Shown piece by piece: positions 19,809 to 60,026 of a stretch of 60,026 bases of DNA. The position numbers were made by a program, and so were the translations under genes. Each line of letters opens with the position of its first letter. Within the stretch, counting starts at the first letter, position 1. Source of the DNA: a phage; sequence record PV806339.1; one strand, written 5' to 3'. Below the pieces are notes generated by a model that was not told the DNA's origin, ran no database searches, and saw only the letters and a program-made list of their open reading frames with translations.

Positions 19809-19819
19809 GGAGAATCGCT

Positions 19820-24909: not shown

Positions 24910-24918
24910 GGGGATCAC

Positions 24919-25926: not shown

Positions 25927-25936
25927 AGGGGTTACT

Positions 25937-26899: not shown

Positions 26900-26912
26900 G
26901 GAGCATACCGAA

Positions 26913-27932: not shown

Positions 27933-27946
27933 GGGAGGGACACACT

Positions 27947-29176: not shown

Positions 29177-29185
29177 GGGGGCCAT

Positions 29186-31381: not shown

Positions 31382-31401
31382 CAATTGACGGGTTAATATT
31401 C

Positions 31402-31428
31402 TTAGCGGGCTTGTCCCGCTAATTTTTT
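31402..31428 (+). terminator. rho-independent terminator after the structural genes
   Basis: TTAGCGGG-cttgt-CCCGCTAA followed by TTTTTT. Confidence 0.9.
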
Positions 31429-31782: not shown

Positions 31783-31785
31783 CCG

Positions 31786-32499: not shown

Positions 32500-32750
32500 C
32501 GGGGCTACTCGCCCGGATTAAGACGGGCGTCCTTGCGGCGCTCGTTTTCGTTGTGGCCCTCTTCGGCGTCTGGCGGGCAGGACGCACGAAGGGCAAACAG
32601 GATCAGATTAATAACCAGAACAATGACACGTTGCGGGAACAGGCAAACGCGGATAAAAATGTGGCCGAGGTGCATAATGAAATCAATAAACTCCCTGATG
32701 GTGGCGCTAACGATCTGCTTCGCCGTAAGTGGATGCGTCGAAAGGATTAA
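32496..32750 (+). CDS. i-spanin (Rz-like)
   Basis: 84 aa. ATGA overlap with the endolysin stop, an N-terminal TMD (VLAALVFVVALFGV), then a charged periplasmic region. Confidence 0.7.
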   Translation: MTGLLARIKTGVLAALVFVVALFGVWRAGRTKGKQDQINNQNNDTLREQANADKNVAEVHNEINKLPDGGANDLLRRKWMRRKD

Positions 32751-32880
32751 CCCTGCGCCGTCTTTCTGTTCTGTCGCGCGCGCCATCTACATCGGTGAGG
32801 AAGACGTGCTGACAGATGAAACCGCACGGCAGATCGCCACCCACGATGAAATCGGCGAACGGCTATGCGGCTGGAAATAG
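32677..32880 (+). CDS. o-spanin (Rz1-like lipoprotein), overlapping the i-spanin gene out of frame
   Basis: 67 aa. Signal peptide plus lipobox (LTICFAVSGC). The start lies inside the 3' end of the i-spanin gene. Confidence 0.7.
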   Translation: MKSINSLMVALTICFAVSGCVERINPAPSFCSVARAIYIGEEDVLTDETARQIATHDEIGERLCGWK

Positions 32881-33342
32881 TTAAATGGTCGGGTGGGTGA
32901 TAACCACCGTACGTTCACCCTCGATTGTCTGGTGGTACCGCAGTGAGGACACCAGATGATCGAGGTTATTGAAGACCGGGATATTCAGCCGCTTCGCCTC
33001 TTCCACCTCCGCGCGGGTACCTGAACTGCGCATCGCGTCTTCACCAATCAGCAGAACCGCGTCACAGCGGCGCATCAATTCCATCGTGCATTCCAGCCAA
33101 TATTCATCCGGTATCTCGCCCTCGGTCTTGTACTCGAAGTTGGCCGTGTTCAGGTGCGGCGTGACCGGGAACATCTTGTGGACGTAGAGTTGATCGACAA
33201 CCGACACGGCCGTCTCTTCGGCTTTCAGGATGTTGACCTTCGTCGGAACGGTGCAGCCAGAACCGATGATGTACGGGCGGTACGGCCCGGCCAGATAGAT
33301 CATGACGGGCTTGGCCGCCGGGTTACACATATTCACGTTCAT
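32881..33342 (-). CDS. nucleoside 2-deoxyribosyltransferase-like protein (DUF1937/DUF4406-like)
   Basis: 153 aa. VMIYLAGPYRP near the N-terminus, PVTPHL, and RCDAVLLIGEDAMRSSGTRAEVEEAKRLNIPVF match the hallmark pattern of that superfamily. Confidence 0.6.
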   Translation of the reverse strand: MNVNMCNPAAKPVMIYLAGPYRPYIIGSGCTVPTKVNILKAEETAVSVVDQLYVHKMFPVTPHLNTANFEYKTEGEIPDEYWLECTMELMRRCDAVLLIGEDAMRSSGTRAEVEEAKRLNIPVFNNLDHLVSSLRYHQTIEGERTVVITHPTI

Positions 33343-33623
33343 ATTAAGCCTCGGTTATATTCGTCCACGTATTTTTCATTTTCAGGAGATCGGTCTACCT
33401 GATTAATCTCGCTGAACTCGCAGGAAATAATATCCCCGCTAGGCAGGCGCACCCGCCAAAAAATATCCTCTTCACGCGGCCCGGTGCGTTCCCATTCGAG
33501 CACGGTTCCGTAGTATTTATGCCCGTTGAATCGGTCAGTGAAATGCACGGAGTCGCCTTTAATCGGCCAGCCCGGTTTTATCTTGGCACGGTATTTCCGT
33601 TTTATAGCCTCAACGTCGATCAT
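33339..33623 (-). CDS. hypothetical protein
   Basis: 94 aa. ATGA overlaps at both ends, within the operon. Confidence 0.7.
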   Translation of the reverse strand: MIDVEAIKRKYRAKIKPGWPIKGDSVHFTDRFNGHKYYGTVLEWERTGPREEDIFWRVRLPSGDIISCEFSEINQVDRSPENEKYVDEYNRGLI

Positions 33624-34519
33624 ACTTCATCGTCCTCGAAGTCTTCGTCAAAAAGGTCAGACTGGAACGGCTCACATGATGATGTGCAGCCATCGCCGTC
33701 GTCCGGGTTAGTGCGGGTCAGGTACAGCAGGCGCTGGCGGTCTTCCAGTCCGGCGTCGGCCATAAGCTGATCCGTGTTTCGTTTGCCACGGAACCATGTG
33801 TGGCCGTCTTCCGCTTTAACGTGGCCGTACTGGATTTCCATGTCGCGGTTCCACGTAAACCATTCAGGGTGTTCGTGGGCTATCAGGTACAGCTTTGCAT
33901 TGCTCTTTTTAAAGCAGGTCAGGCAGTTCCCGTAATGCGGCGGGATGTTCAGTTTGAACGGCATGGCATCCCAATAATCGTTCACGTCCTGCTTATCGAA
34001 ACTCCCCCAATGGCAAAGGGGGTACACCAGATTGAATTTCTTGGCCGACGCTTTGTTCGGGTCAGCCCGCTCCGGCTCGTCCGACCGCATTCCGATGGCC
34101 GTCTTGGCACTCCACCCCCGGCGCGCAAGACCATTGCTGCGCATCCAGTGGCGAATCGTCTGCGTTTTCAGATAGTCGCTGCACTTCTGGCGCGATATGT
34201 TCGGGATGCCCTCGACGCTGATCAGGCTTTCAAACGGTTCGCCCTTCCGTGCGGCCGTCTCGAAACTGACGACCCGGTGGCGCATCCCGACACCGTGTTC
34301 CGGACTGGCGTAGCCCTCCAGCCACACCAGATTCAGGCCGAAGTGTTTATCCACCTTGTCGGCGAATATCAGTGTTTCTTCGTGCTCCCGGCCAGTATTG
34401 GCGAACACGAAACGCAGGTCATATTTGTGGCCGTAATTCTCGATCAGGTATGCACAAAGAAAGCCGGACGACTGGCCGCCGGAAAAGCTGACGACAAGCG
34501 GCTCTTTGTTAGTTGGCAT
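33620..34519 (-). CDS. PP-loop ATPase, PAPS-reductase-like family
   Basis: The PP-loop VVSFSGGQSSGFL follows directly after the start MPTNKEP (the ORF opens at 34603 but overlaps the upstream gene). Cys-rich C-terminus (GNCLTCFK...CTSSC). Ends ...FEDDEV. Confidence 0.7.
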   Translation of the reverse strand: MPTNKEPLVVSFSGGQSSGFLCAYLIENYGHKYDLRFVFANTGREHEETLIFADKVDKHFGLNLVWLEGYASPEHGVGMRHRVVSFETAARKGEPFESLISVEGIPNISRQKCSDYLKTQTIRHWMRSNGLARRGWSAKTAIGMRSDEPERADPNKASAKKFNLVYPLCHWGSFDKQDVNDYWDAMPFKLNIPPHYGNCLTCFKKSNAKLYLIAHEHPEWFTWNRDMEIQYGHVKAEDGHTWFRGKRNTDQLMADAGLEDRQRLLYLTRTNPDDGDGCTSSCEPFQSDLFDEDFEDDEV

Positions 34520-35222
34520 CGGTTGAATCCTCGCATAATGGTATGAAGTCCTTCGGGCCGTCGCCTGAACCGGGGAAGCGCCGGAAGACCATTTCGTCTT
34601 CAATGGTCAGTTTATCCTTGCTGTTCCCGCGACGATAGAAGTCGGCCATGCCGCTGCCGTACGTGCGGTCAATCCCGGCACCATACGGATCTTGCGGGCA
34701 AAGTTCCAGCGCCAGCACTTCTCGCCAGTCCGGCCGATCGATGCGGCTGACGATGCGATGGTTATTCGACACCCGGCAGTACCCCGAGGCTATCAGCGTT
34801 TCCACCAGCCGGGCCTGTTCCTTGCCACGCATCGTTTTCGCGCGCTTGACGTCCTCTTTCCTTGCCCGGGCGAAATACTCCCGCGAGAAGCGGCTACCGA
34901 CGTTCTCCGCGAAGATGCGCAGGTCTTTGATGACCATGCCCCATTTCCGTCGGCTACCTTCTTCCACGTATCGAATGGCCCCGGCGTAGCGCAGCAGCAT
35001 TGCATCGGTCAGGCGGGCATTCTTCGGGTCTTTGGCCTTCCACCAGCCGTACACTTCCACCATGCGGGCCATCGCCTTGTCGCTGTACCATAGCTCGGCG
35101 TGGCTGGTGGGCGAGTATTCCGGGTAACACTTCGCTCCGCCGTCAAACGCCCGGTAGCAGTACCAGATCCCGCCGCTGTACTGGAAGTGCGGTATCTTGT
35201 GTCGCTCTTTCATCGTAGCCAT
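34509..35222 (-). CDS. hypothetical protein
   Basis: 237 aa, tightly packed in the operon. Confidence 0.75.
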   Translation of the reverse strand: MATMKERHKIPHFQYSGGIWYCYRAFDGGAKCYPEYSPTSHAELWYSDKAMARMVEVYGWWKAKDPKNARLTDAMLLRYAGAIRYVEEGSRRKWGMVIKDLRIFAENVGSRFSREYFARARKEDVKRAKTMRGKEQARLVETLIASGYCRVSNNHRIVSRIDRPDWREVLALELCPQDPYGAGIDRTYGSGMADFYRRGNSKDKLTIEDEMVFRRFPGSGDGPKDFIPLCEDSTDAN

Positions 35223-36305: not shown

Positions 36306-36335
36306 AATATAGGTTATACACGCGACGTATGTCAA
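36306..36335 (-). promoter_or_regulatory. sigma70-type early promoter, leftward operon 4
   Basis: Minus strand reads TTGACA-TACGTCGCGTGTATAACC-TATATT (18-bp spacer). The spacer carries the conserved box. Confidence 0.7.
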
Positions 36336-41553: not shown

Positions 41554-41582
41554 AATATTAGTCGTACACGCGACGTACGTCA
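41554..41582 (-). promoter_or_regulatory. sigma70-type early promoter, leftward operon 2
   Basis: Minus strand reads TTGACG-TACGTCGCGTGTACGAC-TAATAT (17-bp spacer) with the conserved box. Confidence 0.75.
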
Positions 41583-41603
41583 ATAACTTTATTCGGGGCA
41601 AAA

Positions 41604-42236: not shown

Positions 42237-43313
42237 TTAAACCTCGTCGTCGTCTTCTTCGTCGTTCAGCGTTCCGGTGTACTCGACTACCTGCCCGGCC
42301 TCGTCCAGCACGCTGATCACCGCACGCAGGGACTTATCGAGTTGGAACAGGTTAGCCATCATGGTCAGGAACTGGCCGCCGTCGGTGCCGTAGCGTTCGA
42401 GCGTGGCGTCGTAGTTCGCATCAACGTCGGCCTCGCCGATGTGGATACCGGACAGGATGGCTTTGTCGGACAGGCGGAAGTACACGGTGTCGATGCCCGG
42501 GCATTGCGTATCGACTTCGAGATCCAGCGCGCGGACAGTCCAGTGACGTGACAGCAGGTCAACCACCGACTCGTCTTTGAAGATGTCCGTGTCCTTCATC
42601 TTGACGTCGTCGCCATCGTCGTGTTTCAGGTGGATAAACGCATCGCCCTTGATGCCGTCCTGCTGGCCGAGAACCGCGCGCTGCATTAACTGGCGCAGCT
42701 CATACTCGCTCGGCAGGAGGTGTTCGACGGGCCATGTGCCGAGCGCGGTACGGATCAGCGCGCTGCACTCTTCTGCCGTCTTCGCGCTCGACGTGAACAC
42801 GTACACGAACGGGGCGGACAGGATGACGTTGACGCGGGAAGGGCGGATAGGCGCGTGTTTCAGCATTTCCGCTTCCACGTCGTCCTTCATCTGCGCCCAA
42901 TCCTTGCGGTTCGGCTCCCAACCCTCGATCTCTTTCTCCCGCAACGCGGCCATGCGCTTCACGACTTCATTTCGTACGCTGACGCCGGGCAACACACGTT
43001 CGCGCTTCTCGATCTGGAAGACGATGGCGTTTGTTCCGGGGATGGCGAGGGCGAATTTACTTTCAACCTCTTCGCCGTACGCTGCAAAGCCCATTGTCTT
43101 GTAAGACGCCTCCGGCGGATCTGACACTTCATGCTTTTCGAGTGCATCGCTAAACGCTCCTTTCGCGAAAGCCGTTACGGCCTCTTCGTCAACGTTCGGC
43201 AGGTTCAGGATCAGGCGGTGCAGCGGCTTGACCTTCTCGTTACCGTCGTTGGCCGCGTCATACAGCGCGCCGAGGTGCAAGATAATGGCTTTCTCATAAC
43301 CCTTGATTTTCAT
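42237..43313 (-). CDS. RdgC-like recombination-associated protein
   Basis: 358 aa. The segment ERVLPGVSVRNEVVKRMAALREKE...VFTSSAKTAEECSALIRTALGTWPVEHL parallels E. coli RdgC (...[21 protein letters not shown]) as I recall it. Ends EEDDDEV. Confidence 0.5.
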   Translation of the reverse strand: MKIKGYEKAIILHLGALYDAANDGNEKVKPLHRLILNLPNVDEEAVTAFAKGAFSDALEKHEVSDPPEASYKTMGFAAYGEEVESKFALAIPGTNAIVFQIEKRERVLPGVSVRNEVVKRMAALREKEIEGWEPNRKDWAQMKDDVEAEMLKHAPIRPSRVNVILSAPFVYVFTSSAKTAEECSALIRTALGTWPVEHLLPSEYELRQLMQRAVLGQQDGIKGDAFIHLKHDDGDDVKMKDTDIFKDESVVDLLSRHWTVRALDLEVDTQCPGIDTVYFRLSDKAILSGIHIGEADVDANYDATLERYGTDGGQFLTMMANLFQLDKSLRAVISVLDEAGQVVEYTGTLNDEEDDDEV

Positions 43314-44455: not shown

Positions 44456-44827
44456 TTAAACTTCGTCGTCGTCCGAAACGTCGGTGTCAGTACAGGTCAC
44501 AACGGCCTGAATGAACATGCGGCCAGACGGGTAAGTCACCAGCGCGGATTCCATGCTGAACCGTTGGCCGTGGTGTTTCATGGCGTTCCGGATGGAAGAA
44601 TTAAGGCTGGCCCGCATCTTCGCTTTGAGGGCATTGGCCTCGTCCTGTACCTGCGAAAGCGTACGGTCAAGCGGGAGTTCTTGGGACAGGGTGTACACGC
44701 CACCGACTTCCAGCGCAATGAGGTTCCCCACGACGCTGTACACGCGCACGCGTGACGGCAGTTCAACATCCGGCTCGGTCGTCATCATTGCGCCAGTCAG
44801 TTCGGCCGGGCTTAGTTCTTTGCTCAT
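44456..44827 (-). CDS. hypothetical protein (first gene of leftward operon 1)
   Basis: 123 aa. TGGAG SD. Ends ...VSDDDEV. Confidence 0.75.
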   Translation of the reverse strand: MSKELSPAELTGAMMTTEPDVELPSRVRVYSVVGNLIALEVGGVYTLSQELPLDRTLSQVQDEANALKAKMRASLNSSIRNAMKHHGQRFSMESALVTYPSGRMFIQAVVTCTDTDVSDDDEV

Positions 44828-44869: not shown

Positions 44870-44898
44870 ACAATAGTTCTACACGCGACGTATGTCAA
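44870..44898 (-). promoter_or_regulatory. sigma70-type early promoter, leftward operon 1
   Basis: Minus strand reads TTGACA-TACGTCGCGTGTAGAAC-TATTGT (17-bp spacer) with the conserved box. Confidence 0.7.
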
Positions 44899-44948
44899 TT
44901 CATTTCATCCAGTAATTATGATGACCGGGTGACACTCCAGTTTAGTTT

Positions 44949-45187
44949 CAGCCGGATGACTTTTTGAAGTAAGGCGGGTGGCCGGGCCGCCGGGCTTCAA
45001 CCGGGTAACTTTTTCAAGTAAGCGCGGAACGTCGCAACGACAACCGGACAGGTTTTTCAAGTAAGCCCGTCAGCCGGGTGAAATTGCCCCGACGCTGGTG
45101 GACAAAACCGTCAGCCGGGTAGGTTTTTGAAGTAAGAACTGGCCGCGTCGTTCAAAATTTTTCAACCGGGTAACTTTTTCAAGTAAG
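44949..45187 (+). repeat. five ~25-bp iterons CA(A/G)CCGG(G/A)(T/C)RNNTTTTT(C/G)AAGTAAG
   Basis: Copies at 44949-44973, 44998-45022, 45041-45065, 45112-45136 and 45163-45187. Copies 2 and 5 are identical. Partial copies lie at 44921-44940 and 45071-45085. Confidence 0.9.
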
Positions 45188-45493
45188 CCCGTCGGGAATT
45201 TTTATAGAGAAAGTCAGGCCCGGCGCGGCCTGCCGTTGTGGGCGGTTGTCGTTTTTGGCGGGATTTCGTACAAATCGTTATAAATCAACGGCTTAACCTA
45301 TGCGCCGATCGGCCTGTTTTGGCCCGGTTGGCGTCGGTTTTTCGTATAGAGTTCAAGTGTTTAGGACGTGGCGCGGTGTGCCGTTTGGCGGTGTGCCGGG
45401 GCGGGGGCCGTGGGGCGCGGCGGTGCAATGCGGCCCGGCGTGGCGATCGGTGGCGCTTTTATGTGCGGTTAATCAAATAATATGAAAAAAGAT

Positions 45494-45523
45494 TTGACGC
45501 ACGCCGCGTATATCATTTACATT
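45494..45523 (+). promoter_or_regulatory. sigma70-type promoter, rightward cassette 1
   Basis: TTGACG-CACGCCGCGTATATCATT-TACATT, followed by the leader hairpin CCC-TTCG-GGG. About 65 bp are shared with the promoter at 48128. Confidence 0.65.
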
Positions 45524-48127: not shown

Positions 48128-48157
48128 TTGACGCACGCCGCGTATATCATCTATTAT
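48128..48157 (+). promoter_or_regulatory. sigma70-type promoter, rightward cassette 2
   Basis: TTGACG-CACGCCGCGTATATCATC-TATTAT (18-bp spacer), followed by the same CCC-TTCG-GGG leader. Confidence 0.7.
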
Positions 48158-50647: not shown

Positions 50648-50846
50648 TGATATACGCGGCGTGCGTTGGTGTGCCGTGTATCGGGCCTATGGTGCGCCGC
50701 TGTAGTTGATATACGCGGCGTGCGTATGGCGGCCCGTCCTGCTTTCTTCCTTCCTGATATACACGACGTGCATCAATGCGGCCTTATGTGCGCGCTATGC
50801 CGTATGGCGGCCCGCTATGGTGCTGCATGATATACGCGGCGTGCGT
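50648..50846 (+). repeat. four promoterless copies of the early-promoter spacer box
   Basis: TGATATACGCGGCGTGCGT at 50648-50666, 50707-50725 and 50828-50846, plus the variant TGATATACACGACGTGCAT at 50755-50773. No usable -10/-35 pair accompanies them. Confidence 0.9.
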
Positions 50847-51083
50847 TGGTGTGCGGCTGTATATGGCTATCTATTCCCCTTTCTATGGTATCCCCTGCTA
50901 TATGGTGTGACGGGGCGTTATTGTATGCCCTTATTTCGGCCGCTATGGGGGCTAGGCGGGGCGATCGTGGTGTAAGGTATGCCTACCTATTACGATCTAT
51001 CTTGCGAGGCGTGGCGGGCGGCTGAGAAAGAATTACGGTCACGATTTCAAAAAGGTACTTACCCGCCAGTCGGTCGGCCCGGG

Positions 51084-51095
51084 GGTGCGCAGAGC
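51084..51095 (+). other. candidate cohesive-end (cosN) dodecamer GGTGCGCAGAGC
   Basis: A GC-rich dodecamer containing the TGCGCA palindrome, in the largest non-coding region. It matches my unverified recollection of the 12-nt 5' cohesive end of chi-like phages. Confidence 0.3.
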
Positions 51096-51307
51096 CGCTT
51101 TCTCGGAAAATGGGCCGGATCTGCCATAGCCCCGCTTTGCGAAATCAATAACTTAGCCGAAAAACCGAATTTCTCCCGTAGGGAGTCTCCAAATCGCGGT
51201 GGTGACGGGGGTGCGGGCGGAACGGCGCTTTAGCCCCGCAATCGGTTGATTGTATTACTGTTTTACCCGGTGGGCGGGTGCTGACCAAGTCCACGGCAGC
51301 AGTATCA

Positions 51308-51587
51308 GGTTACAAGTTACAGACGGGTTACAAGTTTTTCGCTTTGTAACCTCTAACTATCTCACTGTTTTTACTGCGTTTTTCTCCTATAAAGTTACAA
51401 GTTACAAATAAAGTATAGTAATAGTCCAGAAATAGAGAAAACGAGGTAAAAATGTGAATTTTATATAGGGGGGAATTTTACCCGGGCGCTAAACCACTTC
51501 GGTTTGTAACCTGAATACCCGGATCGCTGAGAGCCGCGCCACCACTGGCCCGAACATGGTTACAAACGGCGAAAATGGTATGTAACC
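51308..51587 (+). repeat. array of GGTTACA(A/T) half-sites in direct and inverted arrangement
   Basis: ggttacaagttacag 51308-51322; GGTTACAAG-n7-CTTTGTAACC 51326-51351; gttacaagttacaaa 51394-51408; ggtttgtaacc 51501-51511; GGTTACAAAC-n9-GGTATGTAACC 51558-51587. Confidence 0.85.
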
Positions 51588-51654: not shown

Positions 51655-51663
51655 TGCTATAAT
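51655..51663 (+). promoter_or_regulatory. extended -10 promoter TGcTATAAT for the XRE-family gene
   Basis: TGCTATAAT lies 34 nt upstream of the ATG at 51697. The -35 element is poor. Confidence 0.45.
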
Positions 51664-51696: not shown

Positions 51697-51984
51697 ATGC
51701 AGCACGATGAATGCCGTGAAACGTTGATGGATTTCAAACGACAATTACAGACACATTTGAAGGCGATTTTACGTCGTCAGGGGGTCACACAGAGCGCGCT
51801 TGCGACGATGATCGGCGTACACCAGTCAAGATTAAGTTTCATGCTTAACAGTGACGCAGACAGAGTTTCGATCGATAAACTCATTGAAGCGATAGTGAAA
51901 CTGGACGGCGTGTTTATGGTGAAAATCGGAGATCAAACAGACATAAATCGAGTGCGGTACAAGGAGTGCGAAGACAACGTTTGA
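51697..51984 (+). CDS. XRE-family HTH DNA-binding protein
   Basis: 95 aa. HTH segment VTQSALATMIGVHQSRLSFMLN. Confidence 0.75.
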   Translation: MQHDECRETLMDFKRQLQTHLKAILRRQGVTQSALATMIGVHQSRLSFMLNSDADRVSIDKLIEAIVKLDGVFMVKIGDQTDINRVRYKECEDNV

Positions 51985-52024: not shown

Positions 52025-54610
52025 CTAAACTTCGTCTTCATCGTCAAACGGGTCTGGCTTTTTGCCGACCAGTTTTTCGACTTCTGCGTCATGCCGTTTT
52101 AACGTAGTCTGCACCCACGACGAGTTAAGTTTCCCCGCGTCGTCGAATGCCCCTTTGACCCGCTTCCTGACATAAACGCGGCCAGATTCGCCGCCAAATT
52201 TGACCACGCCGCCCGGCTTGAAGCCCAATTCCATAAGCATGTTTTTCAGGCGGTTCGTCTTCGGCATTTCCACGTCTGTCATTTCGAGGAATGCGTTTTT
52301 CAGGGACGGCACGAAGATGACGTCGCGGTGTACGCCCGGCGTCGTTCCGTCACGAAGCATTTGTGCGATTGCGCCTTCCACGCCATCGTCAGACGCGTCG
52401 GCCATGACCGCGAATGCTTCGGTGTCCTGCGGTGCGTGTCCTTTGGCATCGAAATCCTTTCCGATCTCCCAATCGAGGAACCACTTTTTGATAGCAGGTG
52501 CGTGGTTTTCGATTGCCCGGTACACGTTTTTGAAGAAGCGCGCGCGTTCAGTCTTCGACCCGTAAACCCGCTCCATGTCCAGATGATTTTCTGCCTGCGT
52601 GGACACCACCAGATAACGACGCTGGTTTTCATCGAGTGGCAATGCGTTGAAGTGGTTGGTGAACATCATTTTGCTGCTGGTGTTCACGACTTCCTTCGGC
52701 TTGCGGCCCTTTGGCTCAATCTGGAAGCGATCGTTTGTGATGAATTCCTTCTGGCGTTCCACCGCGCTGTACCGATCGCCTTTGTCGTAGATCTCTTCCA
52801 CGATTTTCAGGATGTGGCCCTCGGCCCAATCGCTGAAACGGCCATTCATCACGGTGTTTGACACATAGCCCACGTTCGACGCGCCGAGCATCCGCGACAT
52901 GATGATGCCGAGCGTCGTTTTACCAGAACCATGCGCACCACGGATCAGAAGCGAGTAGTTGATGCGTTTCGTTGGGTGCTGAATAACCCACGCCATCCAG
53001 TCCAGAACATAGCGGCGTTCCTTCTCGTTCGGGAAAAGCACGATGAAGAAGTCTTTGATGATCTCCAGCGCCTTTTTGTCGTACGGAGAAAGGTCAGTCG
53101 CGGCCTCCGGAATGGATTCAGGGTCAAAAGAGTTCAGCCACGTACGCCCACGGTCGTCAATAAAGAATTCCGGCCCGATCACCCCCTCTTTCGGCTTCCA
53201 CACAGATTCCGGCATGTCACCGTGCATCGCCGGGTAGTACATCGCGTCCCAAACGATAGGAACCGGGCGGACTACCGACGCATAGTGGACAGGCTTGAAG
53301 GCTTCTTCCTCAAACACGCATTTTTTCGCAAAAGCGACGTCGAAAGCGCCTTTTGTGATGTAATCGCCCGTGGTTTTTTCGATAAAACTGTCATTTGCCT
53401 TCGAGAAAACGAAGTTTTTCAGCCACTGCGGAGTCTCTTTTGACCCGTAATCGAAGCCCAAAAGCTCCCTTTTGTCACCAGCAGTGAGGCGGAAGTTGTT
53501 GATCCTGCGGTATGCTTCGGCCGCAATCTGGACGATGGCCTTGCGGGTAAGCCCGAAAATCTGCGCTTTTTTGAATGATTCGGCCCACGCATTCCAGTCA
53601 TTCGCCTCGGTACACTCGGCGAAAGCCTCGCGGTACTCGATGGCGCGTTCTTCCTGCTCGGCTTTCTCGATGTCCTGCACTTCTTTGATGATGGTGCCGA
53701 GCGTGATCAGTCGAGTCGAGTTGTGCGCGAAGCCCTTATCCCACTTGTATTCGAAATCACCTTCGTCGAAGTTGTGTGCCTGCATGGCCCATTCGCGGGC
53801 AATGGCCTTCGCCTCGTCCTGATCGCGGCAGGAAATTTGCAGCGCGGCCAGTACGGTGATGTAGTTCTCGTAATCTTCCGGGTTCGGGTATTTCAGGACG
53901 ATGTCGCGCAGTTCATCGTACGTGCCGTCCCACTTTTTGACGTCAGACAGCGCGGCCCAATCGTCATCGTCTGCCGAACCGATAGACTCATAACCGTTCA
54001 TTGGCCGTTTGACCATTGTCCAGCCCAAGTCCTTCGCGTATCGGTCGAATTCGGCGGCGATCTCGCGAGCGGTATCGAGGCTGATCTCTTCGAGGTCAAG
54101 GTCGGCGGCGTTGTTCAGCGGATTCTCGCCATCAATCCAGTAATAGTCGCGCTTGGTGTCCGGGTGGATACCGTACGCAACGAACTGCTGGCCGTCGGCG
54201 AGGATTTCAACTGCATGGCGCTGGCCGAAGTCGTCTTCCCACACGCCGGATTTCACTTTGGCGAACGGGTTTTCGGTTCGGTACAGGTAGAGTTTCTTCG
54301 GCTCCCGGCCGATACGACATGGCGCTGCACCGACGTTCTCGGCGATCCAGTCTGCCATGTGCGCCACGGCGTCTTCATCGTAAACGTCGATGTCAACCGC
54401 CGGGGTGTATTTGGTCAGAATCCCGATGCCGTTATTCGTATAGCGTTTCGCCCAACGCTGGATCTGCTCCTTATCATTGATTGTTCGTTCCCAATCTTCA
54501 CCGATAGGGCGTTTGCCCGCACCCTTCTTATCGGCGTCCGGGGCGTAGATAGGTACGATGGTGTACCCATTCCCCCAAAGCGTTTCGCCGTACTCTTGCC
54601 AGTAGTTCAT
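52025..54610 (-). CDS. bifunctional primase-polymerase / P-loop helicase (prim-pol plus P4/D5-type NTPase)
   Basis: 861 aa. N-terminal prim-pol-like region (GYTIVPIY...GKRPIGEDW), Walker A GAHGSGKTTLG, Walker B-like ILKIVEE. Ends FDDEDEV. Confidence 0.85.
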   Translation of the reverse strand: MNYWQEYGETLWGNGYTIVPIYAPDADKKGAGKRPIGEDWERTINDKEQIQRWAKRYTNNGIGILTKYTPAVDIDVYDEDAVAHMADWIAENVGAAPCRIGREPKKLYLYRTENPFAKVKSGVWEDDFGQRHAVEILADGQQFVAYGIHPDTKRDYYWIDGENPLNNAADLDLEEISLDTAREIAAEFDRYAKDLGWTMVKRPMNGYESIGSADDDDWAALSDVKKWDGTYDELRDIVLKYPNPEDYENYITVLAALQISCRDQDEAKAIAREWAMQAHNFDEGDFEYKWDKGFAHNSTRLITLGTIIKEVQDIEKAEQEERAIEYREAFAECTEANDWNAWAESFKKAQIFGLTRKAIVQIAAEAYRRINNFRLTAGDKRELLGFDYGSKETPQWLKNFVFSKANDSFIEKTTGDYITKGAFDVAFAKKCVFEEEAFKPVHYASVVRPVPIVWDAMYYPAMHGDMPESVWKPKEGVIGPEFFIDDRGRTWLNSFDPESIPEAATDLSPYDKKALEIIKDFFIVLFPNEKERRYVLDWMAWVIQHPTKRINYSLLIRGAHGSGKTTLGIIMSRMLGASNVGYVSNTVMNGRFSDWAEGHILKIVEEIYDKGDRYSAVERQKEFITNDRFQIEPKGRKPKEVVNTSSKMMFTNHFNALPLDENQRRYLVVSTQAENHLDMERVYGSKTERARFFKNVYRAIENHAPAIKKWFLDWEIGKDFDAKGHAPQDTEAFAVMADASDDGVEGAIAQMLRDGTTPGVHRDVIFVPSLKNAFLEMTDVEMPKTNRLKNMLMELGFKPGGVVKFGGESGRVYVRKRVKGAFDDAGKLNSSWVQTTLKRHDAEVEKLVGKKPDPFDDEDEV

Positions 54611-54888
54611 TCAAGGATTTCCCCTGTTTCGCTGTCCGTTTTGATCCATGAAGGGTTAGTCAGCCAATGCGGACGGATGCCGCAGTGAGGGACAGCTTTG
54701 CAAACTTTTTCGGCCACGCTGCTCGTTACGTTGTTCTGCACGGCCCATAACAATGTCGGGTAACTGATCTTCGCTGCCTTCGCCAGTTCGGCCATTCTGG
54801 CGTTCGGGTCTACCTCCAAAGCCGCTTGCATCATGAGAAATTTGACCCGCATCCGGTCGTCGTTTAAAGCCCAATCTGGAAATCGCAT
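54607..54888 (-). CDS. Cro/YdaS-like HTH protein
   Basis: 93 aa. HTH-like MAELAKAAKISYPTLLWAVQN. GAGGG SD. ATGA-coupled to the primase gene. Confidence 0.65.
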   Translation of the reverse strand: MRFPDWALNDDRMRVKFLMMQAALEVDPNARMAELAKAAKISYPTLLWAVQNNVTSSVAEKVCKAVPHCGIRPHWLTNPSWIKTDSETGEILE

Positions 54889-54930
54889 AGTGATGCCCTC
54901 GCGTAATGTGCGCGTGTTATAGATTTGCGG

Positions 54931-54959
54931 ATATTATATCCGGGCTTGACATCTGTCAA
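54931..54959 (-). promoter_or_regulatory. sigma70-type promoter for the HTH-primase operon
   Basis: Minus strand reads TTGACA-GATGTCAAGCCCGGATA-TAATAT (17-bp spacer). The -35 element is part of the palindrome CTTGACAtcTGTCAAG. Confidence 0.7.
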
Positions 54960-54968
54960 GTTGGCCAG

Positions 54969-55029
54969 TTATTCGGGTACCAAAGGCGCTTTATGTCCGG
55001 AAAACAAAGGGCTTGCGGTACCCGAATAA
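54969..55029. repeat. 13-bp perfect inverted repeat TTATTCGGGTACC (35 nt) GGTACCCGAATAA
   Basis: Arms at 54969-54981 and 55017-55029, between the divergent promoters. Confidence 0.9.
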
Positions 55030-55048
55030 AAAATTTCTAAAAAAGTGT

Positions 55049-55078
55049 TTGACAGTGATTCGGCGTTTGGGCCATACT
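55049..55078 (+). promoter_or_regulatory. sigma70-type promoter for the rightward replication/structural block
   Basis: TTGACA-GTGATTCGGCGTTTGGGC-CATACT (18-bp spacer), 53 nt upstream of the ATG at 55131. Confidence 0.55.
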
Positions 55079-55130
55079 TCATCCCGTCAACACGACACGA
55101 CCTTTTAAACACTTAACGGAGTAGAAAATT

Positions 55131-55547
55131 ATGTCTGGTATCTTCGAACAACTGCTGGCTGAACAACAAAAAACCAACACCCTGCTGGAAGGCGTTCTGG
55201 CAGCACTGAAAGGCGGCGCGGTGAACACTTCCGCTGACGCTGGTAGCGAAACTACTGAAAAAACCACCACCACCAAAGGCGGTGCTAAGGGCGGCGCGAA
55301 AGGCGGTGCAGGTAAAACCGAAACTAAAGCGGTCAAGCCTAAACACACCAAAGACGAAGTAGTCGCGGCTGTCGTTGCGGTTAAAGACGCGTTCGGCGCG
55401 CCGGAAGCCAAGAAAATCACCGCACACTTCGGCCTCGCCAAAGTCGCGGAAGCGAAGGAAGAACACTTCGACGAAATCGTCGAAATGTGTGAAGCCAAAC
55501 TGGCTGAAAAAGATGAAGGCGGTAACGGCGAAGAAGACGACGTTTAA
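55131..55547 (+). CDS. hypothetical protein with a Lys/Gly/Thr-rich low-complexity centre
   Basis: 138 aa. GGAG SD. First gene after the rightward promoter and followed directly by a terminator. Ends GEEDDV. Confidence 0.75.
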   Translation: MSGIFEQLLAEQQKTNTLLEGVLAALKGGAVNTSADAGSETTEKTTTTKGGAKGGAKGGAGKTETKAVKPKHTKDEVVAAVVAVKDAFGAPEAKKITAHFGLAKVAEAKEEHFDEIVEMCEAKLAEKDEGGNGEEDDV

Positions 55548-55562
55548 TCTTTCGCCCCGCAT

Positions 55563-55587
55563 CGGCTCCCTTCGGGGGGCCGTTTTT
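55563..55587 (+). terminator. rho-independent terminator (UUCG loop) after the first rightward gene
   Basis: CGGCTCCC-TTCG-GGGGGCCG followed by TTTTT. Confidence 0.85.
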
Positions 55588-55608
55588 CACACCAACGGAG
55601 AGGCAATT

Positions 55609-55938
55609 GTGACCAGCATTACTTTCACCAACGTAGCAACATCCGGCGGCGCAGTTCTCGCGCGCACTTGGGCGGAGTTTCGTTTTCAAATCGGTGATCG
55701 CGATGTGCTGTTCAGAGTTACTTCACCTGTTTCGAAACACGAAGCGCCGCTGCTCGTAACCCATGCTGCATCGGGCTATCGAGTGTGCGACGTCTGGTGG
55801 GACGACGTGGCGAAGACTCGCTTTAACGCAGGCCGCAATAATTACAGCGGGGCAGGCGCTAGGGCATTGGTAGCGACGATTGAGCGAGTCGGCGAACACC
55901 GATTCCTCAATGCGATAAAGGCGTATCCGAATGAGTAG
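55609..55938 (+). CDS. hypothetical protein
   Basis: 109 aa from the GTG 55609, preceded by GGAGAGG. The longer ORF from 55375 overlaps the upstream gene and the terminator. Confidence 0.6.
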   Translation: MTSITFTNVATSGGAVLARTWAEFRFQIGDRDVLFRVTSPVSKHEAPLLVTHAASGYRVCDVWWDDVAKTRFNAGRNNYSGAGARALVATIERVGEHRFLNAIKAYPNE

Positions 55939-57268
55939 TAAGTCACTGTTAGTCCGCATCATGCGGGAATTCGGCGGTGGCGGCCACTCAATCTTCGCGC
56001 CTTCTGCGTCAGCGCGTTGGATCGCATGTTCTGGAAGCCTGATAGCCGGGCTTTTCGAGCATGACGAAACCATCTACGAGGCGGCGGAAGGCACGGTGGC
56101 CCACGGAATCGCCGAACAATGGCTGCGAACGGATGTCCGGCCAACCCATTTAATCGGTACGGTCGAGACGATCACGGAAGGCGGTGTCAGCCATGACATC
56201 CCCATTACTCGGTCAATGCTCGACTCGGTTCAGGAGTACGTTGACTGGTGCCGATTTGAAGAGGGTGAAATGTTCACGGAAATCCGGGTCTGGTTTACCG
56301 ACCTGATGCCGCGAGCGAACCCGGATGAACCTGACGAAGACCCGATCGAGTTTGTCGCTCAGGGCGGAACGGCGGATAATATCATCATCCGCGACCGAAC
56401 CTTGATCGTGACCGACCTGAAATACGGGACTGGCGTTCAGGTTTTCGCGGAAGGGAACCCGCAGGCGCTACTTTACGCGTACGGTGCGTACCGCGCTTTC
56501 TCGGATGAATACGAGTTTGACCGTATTGTCATCCGGATCGCGCAGCCGAGGCTCGACCATTTCGATACGTGGGAAATCACGATTGACGAATTGTTAGAGT
56601 TCGCGGAGTATGCCCGGGAGCGAATTGCAGCGGCATGGAGCCTTACCGCGCCGCGCCGCGCATCCCTGAAAGGGTGTCGCTTTTGCCGGGCAGCACATAA
56701 CTGCGCAGCGATAGCGTACATGATGGAATGCGCAGTGGGCGGGGACGTGGAATTCCTTGAAGCTGAATTCGGGGAGGAAGAAATGTCAGTATTGCGTGAT
56801 GCGCTGGCGCAGGAATATAAGTTCCGGCGTGCGCAGTTCGGAAACCTGACAACCGAGCAGATGGCGAAGATCCTGCCATACCGCAAGGTGGTCGAAAACT
56901 GGTTCTCGCGCCTTGACTTCGAACTGGAACGCCGCGCAATGAACGGCGAGAAGGTACCGGGTCAAAAGCTGGTGGAGTCGCGGACAAACCGTAAATTCGC
57001 CAACGAGAAAGATGCGATCGCGCTGTTCCGGTTCCTCGATATTGACGAGGACAAGTACATCGAACGCAAACTGCGTACCCCGGCGCAGATGGAAGAAGTG
57101 CTTAGGGATGAATTGGGCGTGTCCCGGGCTGGCGCGCCGAACATCATCGCGGGGATCGTCTACAAGCCGGAAGGCAAGCCGACACTGGCACCGCTGACCG
57201 ATAAGCGGCCACCACTGGACGGCAAGTATTCCGGGGCGTGGGACGACGAAGATGATGACGAAGTGTAA
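55931..57268 (+). CDS. PD-(D/E)xK nuclease, DUF2800 / Cas4-like
   Basis: 445 aa. PSASARWIACSGS and AAEGTVAH at the N-terminus, the VTDLKYGTG catalytic motif, and the Cys cluster CRFCRAAHNCAA. Ends WDDEDDDEV. Confidence 0.85.
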   Translation: MSSKSLLVRIMREFGGGGHSIFAPSASARWIACSGSLIAGLFEHDETIYEAAEGTVAHGIAEQWLRTDVRPTHLIGTVETITEGGVSHDIPITRSMLDSVQEYVDWCRFEEGEMFTEIRVWFTDLMPRANPDEPDEDPIEFVAQGGTADNIIIRDRTLIVTDLKYGTGVQVFAEGNPQALLYAYGAYRAFSDEYEFDRIVIRIAQPRLDHFDTWEITIDELLEFAEYARERIAAAWSLTAPRRASLKGCRFCRAAHNCAAIAYMMECAVGGDVEFLEAEFGEEEMSVLRDALAQEYKFRRAQFGNLTTEQMAKILPYRKVVENWFSRLDFELERRAMNGEKVPGQKLVESRTNRKFANEKDAIALFRFLDIDEDKYIERKLRTPAQMEEVLRDELGVSRAGAPNIIAGIVYKPEGKPTLAPLTDKRPPLDGKYSGAWDDEDDDEV

Positions 57269-57311
57269 ACCCGTAAAACCGTAGAAAGTAAACCCGTAAA
57301 ACAGTAAACCG
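57265..57311 (+). repeat. GTAAACCCGTAAAAC direct repeats in the SSB 5' UTR
   Basis: Copies at 57265-57279 and 57288-57302, plus the partial copy agtaaaccg at 57303-57311. They end 12 nt before the SSB ATG. Confidence 0.9.
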
Positions 57312-57322
57312 AGGATATTAAG

Positions 57323-57919
57323 ATGGCCGAGAAATTAGTCCCTGCGAAAAAAGTCAAGAATGGCGTGCTGTACAAATCTGGTCACATCAAGATTTCTAAC
57401 GTACGTGCTTCTTACCCGCACCTCGATAAGCCGTACGGCGGTGAAGACGGCGGCGAGCCGAAATACTCGCTGACGCTTTTGATGCCGAAAGACAGCCACG
57501 GCGAGATCGAGAAAATCATCCGTGAGCAGATCGAAGTCACCAAGAAGAACCACAAGACAGGCGCGCTGAAAGTCGCCCCGTCCATGTTGTTCATCAAAGA
57601 CGGTGATACCGATTTTCCGGATAAACCGGAATGCGAAGGGATGTGGGTTATCTCCGCACGCGAAAGCAAACGCCCGGATGTGTATAACATCGAGCGCGAA
57701 GAGTTGACTACCTCTTCCGAAATTCTGGAAGAGATCTACGGTGGTTGTTGGGTGTCGGTTGTCATCCGTCCGTGGTCGCAGGAAAACAAATTCGGCAAAC
57801 GCGTTAACGCCAACCTGATTTCCGTTCTGAAACGCAAAGACGACGAGCCGTTCGGTGAAGGTCGTGTGGACACGTCCGACGCGTGGGATGAAGACGAAGA
57901 TTGGGAAGACGAAGTGTAA
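57323..57919 (+). CDS. single-stranded DNA-binding protein, DUF2815 type
   Basis: 198 aa. ISNVRASYPHLDKPYGG...KYSLTLLMPKD matches the DUF2815 pattern. Sits between the DUF2800 gene and polA. Acidic tail ends WEDEV. Confidence 0.8.
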   Translation: MAEKLVPAKKVKNGVLYKSGHIKISNVRASYPHLDKPYGGEDGGEPKYSLTLLMPKDSHGEIEKIIREQIEVTKKNHKTGALKVAPSMLFIKDGDTDFPDKPECEGMWVISARESKRPDVYNIEREELTTSSEILEEIYGGCWVSVVIRPWSQENKFGKRVNANLISVLKRKDDEPFGEGRVDTSDAWDEDEDWEDEV

Positions 57920-57942
57920 TGTACGCCCTCGGGCGGTAATAC

Positions 57943-57968
57943 AAGGCCCGCCGCGTGCGGGCTTTTTT
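57943..57968 (+). terminator. rho-independent terminator after the SSB gene
   Basis: GCCCGC-cgcgt-GCGGGC followed by TTTTTT. Confidence 0.9.
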
Positions 57969-57985
57969 CATACAGGAGCGTTAAC

Positions 57986-60025
57986 GTGACCGATTGCATT
58001 AATCTGGACTATGAATCCCGAAGCCGGGTGAACCTTAAAACGAACGGATTCGACCGATATTCGAACGACGAATCGACTAAAATTCTGATGGGCGCATGGT
58101 CTATCAATGGCGGAGCGGTGCAGCACATCGACCTTCACCGAGGGAAGAAGTTGCCCGGCGAACTGCGTGAAGCGCTGGAAGACCCGGCCGTCGAGAAGTG
58201 GGCCTTTAACGCGCAGTTCGAACGCGTAATGACCCGCCGGGTGCTCGGCATCAAGACGCCGTATAAATCGTGGCGCTGTACGATGGCGCTGGCGTACATG
58301 CTCGGCTTTGCTGGCGACCTTCTGGCCGTCGGCACGCAGATCGGCTTGCCGGAAGAGAAACTGAAAGACCCGGAAGGCAAGCGCCTGATCGACCTGTTCA
58401 GCAAGCCGCAGCGTGTCACGAAGAAAAACCCGTTTGAGTGGCGCAATGAAGCGACCGACCCGGAAGACTGGTGGCACTTCTGCAAATATAACGTGCGGGA
58501 CGTTGAAACCGAACTGGCGATTAAAGCCCGCCTGATGCGGTACCCGGTTCTGGATGCCGAATGGGACATGTACGCGCTGGATCAGTTCATCAACGATACA
58601 GGCGTGATGATTGACCGCGAATTCGCGTACTCGGCGCTGGCGCTCGCAGAGGCGCGCAAACCGCAGATTATCGAAGAAATGGCCGACATCACTGGCCTGA
58701 ACAACCCCAATTCCCCGGCTCAGTTAACACCGTGGCTCAAAGAGCGCGGCTATCCGTTCAGCGACCTTCGCAGTGACACCGTCAACAAGGTCATTCGCGA
58801 AGCCGATGAAAACGGCGTTGACCCGGATGCGATCCGCGTGCTGCGGATGCGCCTGAATAGCGCGAAAAACTCCCTGTCAAAATATCAGACCATGATTGAC
58901 GCGGCTGGCGAAGATGGCCGATTCCGCTTCTCGCTGCAATTCGCCGGGGCAAGCCGCACGAACCGTTGGGCTGGCCGCCGTATTCAGACTCAAAACCTGC
59001 CGAGAACGCCGAAGCTGATCGAGGACGTGACCGACCTGTCCATCGTTAACAAGATGATCCACCAGCGCGACCTTGATGCGTTGACGCTGTATGTGGGCGA
59101 GCCGATGGACGCGCTGGTGGGCTGCATTCGCTCCGCCTTCATCCCGACGCCGGGCCACAAGTTCATCGTTGCCGACCTGTCGTCCATCGAATCCGTGGTC
59201 ATCGGGTGGCTGACAAACTGCAAATGGTTCATGGACACGCTGGCGGCCAAGCACGACCTTTACCGTTCATTCGCGGCTCACTGGCTGCACCTGCCGTACG
59301 AAGAAACGAAGCCACACCGCCCGAAAGCCAAACCTGCTACCCTCGGCGCGGGCTATCGCCTCGGCGGCGGCCACATGGACGAGAATGGCAAGAAGACCGG
59401 ACTGTGGGGCTACGCCGAAAACATGGGCGTACACATGACGCAGAAAGAGGCAGAAGAGTCGGTACAGGCGTTCCGCGACCTTTGCCCGGAAATTGTGCGC
59501 GCATGGTATGACCTCGAAAACGCGGTATTCAAGGTTATCCGTACCCGTCAGGCCGTCGTATGGGGCTGTCTGATCATCGAATACACAAAACCTTTCCTGA
59601 CCATCCGTCTGCCGTCTGGCCGCAAAATGTATTACTTCCGTCCGCGTCTGGTCGAGCGCCAGATGACCGTTCAGAAAGGGCCGAAGAAGGGTGAGAAGTA
59701 CACAAAGACCAACTTCCAGTACGAAGGCAAGGTGGAAGGCAGCGGCACCAAGTGGGGCAAGATTTACAGCCACGGCGGTAAGCTGGTGGAAAACATCGTT
59801 CAGGCGCTGGCGCGCGACGTGCTCGCCGAAGGTCTGAAAAAGGCGCACCGCATGGGCTTCCGGATCGTCATGCACATCCACGATGAAATCGTAACCGAAG
59901 TGCCGGAAGACAGCCCGCTGACCGTGGACGACCTTATTTCCTGCATGGCGGCCGAACTACCGTGGGCCGAAGGGCTACCGCTTGGCGCTGCCGGGTGGGA
60001 AGGCTATTTCTACCGTAAGGATTAA
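57986..60025 (+). CDS. family A DNA polymerase with 3'-5' exonuclease domain
   Basis: 679 aa from a GTG with an AGGAG SD. Exo I motif LDYES, motif A ADLSSIESVV, motif B KPATLGAGYRLGG, motif C HIHDEIV. Confidence 0.9.
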   Translation: MTDCINLDYESRSRVNLKTNGFDRYSNDESTKILMGAWSINGGAVQHIDLHRGKKLPGELREALEDPAVEKWAFNAQFERVMTRRVLGIKTPYKSWRCTMALAYMLGFAGDLLAVGTQIGLPEEKLKDPEGKRLIDLFSKPQRVTKKNPFEWRNEATDPEDWWHFCKYNVRDVETELAIKARLMRYPVLDAEWDMYALDQFINDTGVMIDREFAYSALALAEARKPQIIEEMADITGLNNPNSPAQLTPWLKERGYPFSDLRSDTVNKVIREADENGVDPDAIRVLRMRLNSAKNSLSKYQTMIDAAGEDGRFRFSLQFAGASRTNRWAGRRIQTQNLPRTPKLIEDVTDLSIVNKMIHQRDLDALTLYVGEPMDALVGCIRSAFIPTPGHKFIVADLSSIESVVIGWLTNCKWFMDTLAAKHDLYRSFAAHWLHLPYEETKPHRPKAKPATLGAGYRLGGGHMDENGKKTGLWGYAENMGVHMTQKEAEESVQAFRDLCPEIVRAWYDLENAVFKVIRTRQAVVWGCLIIEYTKPFLTIRLPSGRKMYYFRPRLVERQMTVQKGPKKGEKYTKTNFQYEGKVEGSGTKWGKIYSHGGKLVENIVQALARDVLAEGLKKAHRMGFRIVMHIHDEIVTEVPEDSPLTVDDLISCMAAELPWAEGLPLGAAGWEGYFYRKD

Positions 60026-60026
60026 C

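Follow-up and report, generated by a model that had tools for sequence, protein, structure and literature searches.

Promoters and terminators in the 38-kb plus-strand gene block of a Chi-like phage

The plus-strand block and its terminators

The phage DNA of sequence record PV806339.1 (60,026 nucleotides (nt); the whole stretch is referred to as the window) was found to be a complete, circularly permuted Chivirus genome, with its region 54900-58000 matching Salmonella phage vB_SenS_ER6 at 100% identity and dozens of other Chivirus genomes at 95-99%. The subject of this work is the transcription of a long block of co-directional genes in this genome, which begins at the promoter P55049. An earlier note on this DNA had described the block as about 36 kb in length, with several internal terminators and only one recognisable promoter, and had taken this to mean that late expression uses an antiterminator or unseen late promoters lacking consensus elements. 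The map of open reading frames (ORFs) and the synteny with annotated relatives agree with the note that every gene from 55131 across the window junction 60026/1 to 32880 is on the plus strand; its length holds as 36.4 kb from 55049 to the terminator ending at 31428, but the full block, down to 32880, measures 37.9 kb. A terminal redundancy was looked for in the window and not found. The cohesive-end sequence of phage Chi is GGTGCGCAGAGC (PMC4342425). This sequence was found at window positions 51085-51096 and, therefore, the junction 60026/1 is an assembly artefact and not a physical end of the genome, and the block is contiguous in virion DNA. Window position 1 is the ATG of the VRR-NUC nuclease gene, the next gene after the DNA polymerase. 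The genes of the block follow each other in the order first gene, gp5, exonuclease, SSB, polymerase, nuclease, SNF2 helicase, TerS, TerL, head, tail and lysis:

55131-55547, plus strand: first gene, Chi gp4 family, phrog_7721, 138 amino acids (aa)
55609-57268, plus strand: gp5 and DUF2800/PD-(D/E)XK exonuclease (ORF map, Pfam), reachable only via read-through of terminator tA
57323-57919, plus strand: Gp2.5-like/Enc34-type SSB gene (Pfam)
57986-60026, plus strand: DNA polymerase gene, running on into the nuclease at window position 1 and reachable only via read-through of terminator tB
1-4431, plus strand: VRR-NUC nuclease, SNF2 helicase, TerS and TerL, tightly spaced or overlapping
4442-9196, plus strand: head genes (adaptor, portal, protease, decoration, major capsid)
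9258-12198, plus strand: g18, neck and tail-completion genes, major tail protein gene
12295-31381, plus strand: tail chaperones (with a frameshift, site 12661-12702), tape measure, tail tip and fibre genes
31444-32880, plus strand: lysis genes, with no terminator hairpin at the convergent junction 32880/32881

TerS (start 1797) overlaps the SNF2 helicase gene (end 1810) by 14 nt, an overlap which the earlier note had already pointed out and which is kept in most relatives. Only six gaps in the block are longer than 40 nt, and five of the six contain a hairpin:

55563-55587, plus strand: tA, intrinsic terminator with an 8-bp stem (55563-55582), a UUCG loop and UUUUU; -16.3 kcal/mol
57924-57968, plus strand: small hairpin 57924-57935, then terminator tB 57943-57968 (UUUUUU, -14.6 kcal/mol)
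9217-9241, plus strand: hairpin after the capsid gene, -19.6 kcal/mol, followed only by GCUUUG
12215-12244, plus strand: tD, stem 12215-12234 followed by UUUUCUUUU, -13.4 kcal/mol, after the major tail gene
31402-31428, plus strand: tE, stem 31402-31422 followed by UUUUUU, -11.8 kcal/mol, between the last fibre gene and the lysis genes

Reading and folding of the sequence bore out the four terminators of the earlier note as canonical intrinsic ones; they follow the first gene, SSB, the major tail gene and the last of the fibre genes. tB was listed by the pattern scan on the minus strand only, and the plus-strand hairpin with its T-run is plain on reading. A G+C-rich stem-loop with a U-tract, as expected for an intrinsic terminator, was found for tA, tB, tD and tE; the hairpin after the capsid gene fails on the U-tract. 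The latter had been noted as a weak hairpin and it is indeed present, almost without a U-tract, but at 9217-9241 and not at 9227-9256; it is likely a weak terminator or a 3' stabiliser. For comparison, six relatives from six genera of the Casjensviridae (Chi, Soft, Enc34, PibeRecoleta, XAP3 and SLP-22) were used, two more distant genomes (a Lavrentievavirus and the unassigned Xanthomonas phage FoX4) were added, and coordinates across relatives were taken from pairwise blastn maps. Hairpins were found at the same five junctions in 6/6 genera. At four of the five junctions the stem sequences differ between the genera; the stem sequence of tD is invariant. A Proteus phage (L008) has tA, tB, tD and the capsid hairpin as well, FoX4 has tB and the capsid hairpin, and terminators annotated by the depositors are found at matching places in phages Soft and FoX4, among them tA in Soft and tB in both. 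Judged by this conservation, the hairpins and P55049 are functional elements and not chance matches. The small G+C-rich hairpin 57924-57935, which starts 4 nt after the SSB stop codon, was seen in all genera, in FoX4 and in the Proteus phage. A three-hairpin attenuator at tB was considered but not adopted, because the GGCGG arm pairs with CCGCC over only 5 bp and the pairing is not conserved.

tA lies 15 nt past the stop codon of gp4 and 22 nt before gp5, and there is no room for a promoter in these 22 nt or in the 17 nt between tB and the polymerase gene. Therefore, gp5, exonuclease and SSB can be expressed only if tA is read through, and polymerase, nuclease, helicase, TerS and TerL only if both tA and tB are. 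A promoter-like match at 56352 in the exonuclease gene (TTGTCG-17-GATAAT, score 10.5) was dismissed as chance since it is not conserved (score 0.6 in Enc34 and 3.9 in Soft).

The codon adaptation index (CAI) was calculated from the Sharp-Li weights for E. coli. The highest value in the genome was found for gp4 (0.66), followed by g18 (0.62), the capsid (0.56), SSB (0.51), the tail tube (0.49) and the decoration protein (0.48); all others had values of 0.43 or less. The genes directly before tA, tB, the capsid hairpin and tD are those of gp4, SSB, capsid and tail tube and are, thus, among those with the highest CAI, and the high CAI of g18, which directly follows the U-poor capsid hairpin, fits with that hairpin being a poor terminator. 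The genes which can be reached only through tA and tB encode enzymes, which are needed in small numbers. Terminators placed after the genes of highest CAI are the pattern that would be expected of partial stops and 3' stabilisers which set protein ratios. As a side observation, the CAI of g18 (9258-9551; DUF7443, 97 aa), second-highest in the genome, suggests an abundant virion or assembly protein.

Promoters inside the block

Promoters were searched for by our own script with a sigma70 weight matrix written from consensus frequencies; about 6 matches with a score of ≥11 are expected per strand by chance. Together with the comparison of relatives, this led to four elements, of which the last is a candidate, and to two adjacent features:

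55026-55078, plus strand: P55049, A-rich UP-like element, -35 TTGACA (55049-55054), 18-nt spacer, -10 CATACT (55073-55078); score 11.4
4373-4401, plus strand: P_head, putative promoter TTGATG (4373-4378), 17-nt spacer, TACAGT (4396-4401), recognised by conservation across TerL 3' ends
12254-12262, plus strand: P_tail, predicted extended -10 promoter TGcTACATT (TGCTACATT), recognised by invariant columns in 13 junctions
31371-31399, plus strand: candidate P_lys, TTGTGT-17-TAATAT, its -10 ending 2 nt before the stem of tE
12266-12292, plus strand: hairpin GACGGAT...ATCCGTC with the Shine-Dalgarno sequence GGAG in its loop, kept in 4/6 genera
55084-55097, plus strand: conserved CCGTCAACACGACA at or just past the predicted transcription start of P55049, unique in the genome

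P55049 is, as the earlier note had stated, the only promoter of consensus grade in the block, and TTGACA-18-CATACT was the sole intergenic match of the consensus scan. Its -35 hexamer is identical in 6/6 aligned genomes, where the A-rich tract and a consensus-like -10 are kept as well, and the hexamer and the A-tract are present also in Proteus phage L008. The predicted 5' untranslated region (UTR) has a length of about 46 nt, and among the aligned genera conservation ends at about +15. Within this short leader, CGTCnAnnCnnnA is invariant across 7 genomes at the start of the transcript, and the Proteus phage has the similar CGTGTCGAAACGAGACA as its equivalent.

Upstream of terS or of the head genes, no consensus match of ≥9/12 was found. 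For the packaging genes this result stood up to comparison: the check for conserved motifs before 1797 in relatives gave no promoter enrichment upstream of terS (median score 3.68 vs 4.53; 69 distinct helicase 3' ends), and this set served as a negative control. For the head genes, the earlier failure to find a promoter holds at the level of the consensus but not under comparison, which revealed P_head in the 3' end of TerL. P_head falls within the 3'-terminal 60 nt of TerL, with about 46 nt between it and the first head gene downstream (ATG of the adaptor gene at 4442), and its weight-matrix score is 11.9, compared to 11.4 for P55049. The sample consisted of 63 distinct TerL 3' ends from 80 loci, obtained by a profile search with the adaptor protein. 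Within the final 70 nt of TerL, the highest promoter score had a median of 7.15 (n=63) vs 2.66 in 1092 windows of the same size further up TerL, and a score of ≥9 was reached by 40% of the TerL 3' ends but only 1.7% of the background windows. The position is near-constant: from the start of the -10 to the end of the stop codon there are 36 nt, and the -35 is placed exactly 17 nt upstream of the -10. Since the -10 coincides with the Tyr-Ser codons of a conserved C-terminal TerL peptide, P_head had to be tested against the constraint on the protein. To this end, T was counted at the two synonymous third positions which complete TTG and TAnnnT, and the expected counts were derived from the codons that the same genes use for these amino acids. 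T was present in 32/54 (9.4 expected) and 35/54 cases (11.1 expected); with z = 8.1 and 7.7, values inflated by the phylogenetic relatedness of the compared sequences, these two sites rank as the top two among 32 codon positions. Moreover, FoX4 has TTGACG-17-TATTCT at the same position, built from different codons. TTGnnn-17-TAnnnT hexamers are thus found at a fixed position in many of the 63 TerL 3' ends and, retained across 51-63 distinct relatives, appear to be kept by strong selection at synonymous sites, which supports P_head as a conserved sigma70-like promoter feeding the head genes.

The second internal promoter was found in the 96-nt gap after the major tail gene, which is far more conserved than the flanking coding DNA. 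IMG/VR contigs with the same terminator and a homologue of the chaperone yielded 15 distinct junctions, of which 13 were aligned; the chaperone identity went down to 35%. Across these 13 junctions, the stretch from the terminator to the ATG has no invariant columns other than T, G, T, A, A and T(A), spaced as TG-n-TA-n-A-n-T, and the motif is kept in 5/5 genera. By this pattern, the element at 12254-12262 is the footprint of an extended -10 promoter. The sequence at the upstream -35 position, TTCTTT, is not usable, and the predicted start is located at the foot of the hairpin 12266-12292. The candidate P_lys is weaker, being conserved only in four fairly close genera; wider sampling of the tE hairpin returned close relatives only. 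In sum, "only one recognisable promoter" is correct at the consensus level, but by comparison there are at least two conserved internal promoters, P_tail and P_head, and the lack of a consensus promoter should not have been taken as the lack of any promoter.

Proposed nested transcription units and competing explanations

Based on these data, we propose, with a probability of roughly one half, that the 38-kb plus-strand block consists of four nested sigma70 units with attenuating terminators and is not a single operon that depends on an antiterminator. The RNA polymerase of the host with its sigma70 would read a chain of overlapping transcription units. P55049 would fire strongly and most of the abundant mRNA of the first gene would end at tA; a minority of polymerases would pass tA to transcribe gp5, exonuclease and SSB, with the SSB mRNA ending at tB, and a smaller fraction would pass tB and reach polymerase, nuclease, helicase, TerS and TerL. 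The head genes would be fed by P_head (4373-4401), the tail genes by P_tail (12254-12262) and the lysis genes by a possible fourth promoter, P_lys (31371-31399). The terminators after gp4, SSB, capsid and tail tube would act as partial stops and as protective 3' hairpins and would together set the protein ratios. Read-through of tA and tB would then be ordinary leakiness, the internal promoters would need no phage factor and the abundance of late products would come from amplification of the template. Of the two routes to late expression that the earlier note had left open, the one by unseen promoters is thus supported by P_head and P_tail, although both are sigma70-like and not "lacking consensus" elements, and nothing points to an antiterminator.

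Such an arrangement has precedents. In the Ff phages (f1/M13) and in T7, several promoters are combined with few leaky terminators, placed behind the gene with the most abundant product (gene VIII; T-phi after gene 10). Like in these gradients, the terminators of the Chi-like block are found right after the genes of bulk proteins, upstream promoters would add up and read-through would supply the genes of low abundance; unlike Ff and T7, this is a siphovirus using the host polymerase, with a 38-kb block and a putative promoter within the coding sequence of the terminase. For phage LUZ7, termination efficiencies below 50% were reported for >60% of the mapped terminators, and inefficient terminators of T7 are cited as balancing expression (PMC9163698). 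LUZ7, as mapped by ONT-cappable-seq, resembles the proposed block in its intrinsic terminators of <50% efficiency, stepwise read-through and nested units (PMC9163698), but LUZ7 is N4-like and has RNA polymerases of its own.

Several points weigh against our proposal. A literature search found no transcriptome and no mapping of promoters or transcript ends for Chi-like phages. tA, tB, tD and tE look like good terminators and, if each stopped >90% of the polymerases, very little transcription would get as far as the polymerase and terminase genes. In Yonseivirus P_head is weak, and Jacunavirus and Lavrentievavirus lack it; the head genes of these phages need another supply. The relatedness of the compared sequences inflates the p values as well as the z values and, given a matrix written from consensus frequencies and the number of chance matches with a score of ≥11, P_head rests on conservation and not on its score. 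Last, the model leaves unexplained the temporal control, the conserved CCGTCAACACGACA and the small hairpin before tB.

If correct, the proposal is of practical interest. Chi-like flagellotropic phages are widely isolated for the control of Salmonella, Klebsiella and E. coli, and the map offered here comprises one strong early promoter, four conserved terminators, a promoter embedded in TerL and an extended -10 promoter after the terminator of the major tail gene. Recoding of the TerL 3' end or insertion of payloads at the intergenic hairpins would be expected to disturb expression. In addition, the question of read-through would be narrowed to tA and tB and to enzymes of low abundance.

The internal promoters could also be late promoters that need a phage activator, either the XRE-type helix-turn-helix (HTH) protein encoded by 51697-51984 or the 93-aa protein encoded by 54607-54888, and this activator would set late timing instead of gene dosage. 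Both proteins are small, putatively DNA-binding and conserved, a usable -35 is missing from P_tail, and P_head matches the consensus at only 4/6 positions in each hexamer. Furthermore, the strong intergenic promoters of the genome (score ≥13) are all found in the other 22 kb (minus strand: 54959, 44898, 41583, 38390 and 36335; plus strand: 45494 and 48128). The strong consensus promoters lie in the two early arms and have an operator-like spacer motif in common, which suggests class-specific regulation. However, sigma70 extended -10 promoters are independent of a -35 and of an activator, P_head scores on par with P55049, and no motif is common to the regions upstream of P_head, P_tail and P_lys; likewise, neither the start motif of P55049 nor the P_tail motif recurs elsewhere in the genome. 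We consider the need for an activator unlikely.

Processive antitermination in the manner of lambda Q would be a second way to supply the late genes. An unrecognised antiterminator encoded by the phage would modify the polymerase that starts at P55049, perhaps by loading at CCGTCAACACGACA, and let it ignore tA, tB and the later terminators. Passage of tA and tB is indeed a logical necessity, the terminators are canonical and conserved, the element at the transcript start is conserved, genome-unique and unexplained, and most early ORFs have no known function. P55049, a short unit, a terminator and a long late block recall lambda pR'-tR': here as there, a strong promoter and an early terminator precede a very long series of packaging, head, tail and lysis genes that all point the same way, and the head genes are lambda-like, with a capsid protein about 30% identical to lambda E. 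Unlike in lambda, replication genes are located inside the block and it has conserved internal promoters, at just the sites where an operon under antitermination could do without any. About 59 ORFs, from both early arms, the replication genes and a few other places, were scanned against Pfam; the scans recognised an XRE-type HTH, Dam, RdgC, PAPS-reductase-like and primase-polymerase proteins and several DUFs, and none of the families was that of Q, N or another antiterminator, a sigma factor or an RNA polymerase. A -10-like pause element (TAnnnT-type) was not evident in 55085-55130 (+1 to +45), by reading only, and a put-like RNA with two stem-loops was not found; the 5' UTR is too short and unconserved past about +15, and a search of Rfam at E≤1 gave no match. 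The terminators after the genes of highest CAI are, moreover, better explained as attenuators. A phage-encoded antiterminator is, thus, quite unlikely. The same holds, with even less weight, for an undescribed antitermination of the Casjensviridae in which an early-gene factor or a Nus-type complex of the host would load at CCGTCAACACGACA and pass tA, tB and the later terminators, with the internal promoters being auxiliary. Should read-through turn out to depend on infection, a new antitermination factor would have to be sought among a small set of early genes.

Read-through could, third, be coupled to translation, if a ribosome close behind the polymerase hinders formation of the hairpin so that a translation-dependent fraction of polymerases passes. 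The distances from stop codon to stem are 15 nt for tA, 23 nt for tB (4 nt for the small hairpin), 20 nt for the capsid hairpin, 16 nt for tD and 20 nt for tE, they are similar in relatives, and the upstream genes have the highest CAI and should, thus, be densely translated. But a distance of 15-23 nt is at or beyond the limit of the usual reach of a terminating ribosome, and the alternative pairing of the small hairpin with the 5' arm of tB is restricted to 5 bp and is not conserved across genera. A coupling to translation seems quite improbable.

The earlier note had put forward the first gene, 55131-55547, as a speculative antiterminator, because promoter, small Lys/Gly-rich gene and terminator are reminiscent of lambda pL-N-tL1. 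In its product, a variable Lys/Gly/Thr linker separates a conserved N-terminal helix from a helical C-terminal domain, which is strongly conserved and is followed by an acidic tail (...EEDDV); the structure was predicted with a mean pLDDT of 60 (about 80 in the C-terminal domain). The family is confined to Chi-like phages and its PHROG match is of unknown function; L008 and FoX4 encode first-gene proteins of the same architecture, the linker of FoX4 having KPAA-type repeats. The linker is disordered and locally basic (isoelectric point (pI) 9.3), whereas the protein as a whole has a pI of 5.04 and its N-terminal 28 residues one of 4.8. There is no Arg among the 138 aa, and Arg is lacking in almost all of 20 aligned gp4 homologues. 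Searches against Pfam, PDB sequences and PDB folds (E≤0.001) gave no match. No boxA/boxB-like element of the P55049 5' UTR is conserved and no hairpin is in register in the aligned genera; a boxA-like CCTTTTAAACA in the 5' UTR was rejected since it is species-specific and not conserved in other genera.

At least eight proteins of the phage end in an acidic tail of the type ...D(D/E)(D/E)V*, namely the first gene product, the exonuclease, SSB, TerS, the RdgC-like protein, the primase, a DUF7609 protein and the PAPS-reductase-like protein, and the three strongest copies also surface as a DNA repeat (family D12). The corresponding genes are:

55131-55547, 55931-57268, 57323-57919 and 1797-2366, plus strand: acidic-tail genes
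42237-43313, 52025-54610, 44456-44827 and 33620-34603, minus strand: acidic-tail genes

Because the tail is common to mostly replication and recombination enzymes, it points to a role of the first gene product in that machinery. It may be a docking peptide for one hub protein; the tails of gp2.5 and gp4 of T7 offer a comparison for such shared docking. The resemblance to lambda pL-N-nutL-tL1 therefore stands for the geometry only, i.e. a promoter, a small first gene with a disordered region and an intrinsic terminator before the downstream genes, which is kept in every genus examined. That the first gene product lets polymerases pass tA and the later terminators like lambda N is hardly credible, even with its locally basic linker, for an acidic protein without an arginine-rich RNA-binding motif, without sequence or fold kinship to N and without a conserved boxA or boxB-like hairpin, whose CAI fits a bulk protein rather than a regulator and whose folded C-terminal domain and tail, the latter shared with SSB, two nucleases, primase and TerS, point to replication and recombination.

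Control regions and minor observations

P55049 is part of a divergent control region, and the block is flanked by further features with a possible regulatory function:

54931-54959, minus strand: divergent promoter TTGACA-17-TAATAT for the 93-aa regulator and primase operon; score 14.4
54969-55029: 13-bp inverted repeat TTATTCGGGTACC (54969-54981) / GGTACCCGAATAA (55017-55029) between the divergent promoters P54959 and P55049
57269-57322, plus strand: SSB leader, unstructured (-0.6 kcal/mol), with CCGTAAA(A/C) repeats

The GGTACC cores of the inverted repeat are kept in most genera, and the repeat probably serves the adjacent 93-aa protein as a pair of operators. A search for further half-sites with CGGGTACC was abandoned as the pattern is too short to be informative. 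Repeats similar to those of the SSB leader are found before SSB in every genus examined, and the leader may be a translational operator or enhancer.

Five of the strong early-arm promoters have TTGAC(G/A)-yACGyCGCGTrTA, a -35 hexamer with an operator-like spacer, in common (plus strand: 45494-45512 and 48128-48146; minus strand: 36317-36335, 41565-41583 and 44880-44898). Four more copies of the spacer motif, without promoter hexamers, are located on the minus strand at 50651-50849, beside the right cos end, and not a single copy of the promoter-spacer motif was found in the 38-kb block. A phage regulator probably binds at the spacer motif yACGyCGCGTrTA. Where the minus and the plus early arm diverge (44947-45191), the intergenic DNA has five copies of a 31-nt repeat (TTCAACCGGGTAACTTTTTCAAGTAAG...), spaced 43-71 nt apart; they are iteron-like and may form an origin or a regulator array. 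An extended -10 promoter was predicted at 51655-51663 (TGCTATAAT) before the XRE-type HTH gene 51697-51984. The region after cos, 51290-51570, is non-coding and has many GTTACAA/TTGTAAC repeats, which may be sites for terminase or a host factor; the ORF 50979-51233, which spans cos, is probably no gene.

The top peaks of a scan for synonymous constraint were the frameshift site 12661-12702 and the gene overlaps 256-286 (nuclease/helicase), 1781-1811 (helicase/TerS) and 2337-2364 (TerS/TerL). The peak at 256-286 contains the P_tail-like CTACATTATCG and was considered as a hidden promoter before the helicase, but was rejected in favour of dual coding, with the helicase frame upstream encoding a conserved PLS[KR]A... 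peptide. Since the helicase reading frame reaches about 30 codons into the nuclease gene with this conserved peptide, some helicase start sites in the databases are probably set too far downstream. The last tail-fibre gene (29186-31381) contains a tandem duplication of 66 nt at 30292-30423, with copies that are 98% identical. At 32878-32883 the plus-strand block abuts a convergent minus-strand block without a spacer or terminator hairpin, and the convergent transcripts may overlap; in phage Soft, a terminator is annotated at the equivalent of the junction 32880/32881.

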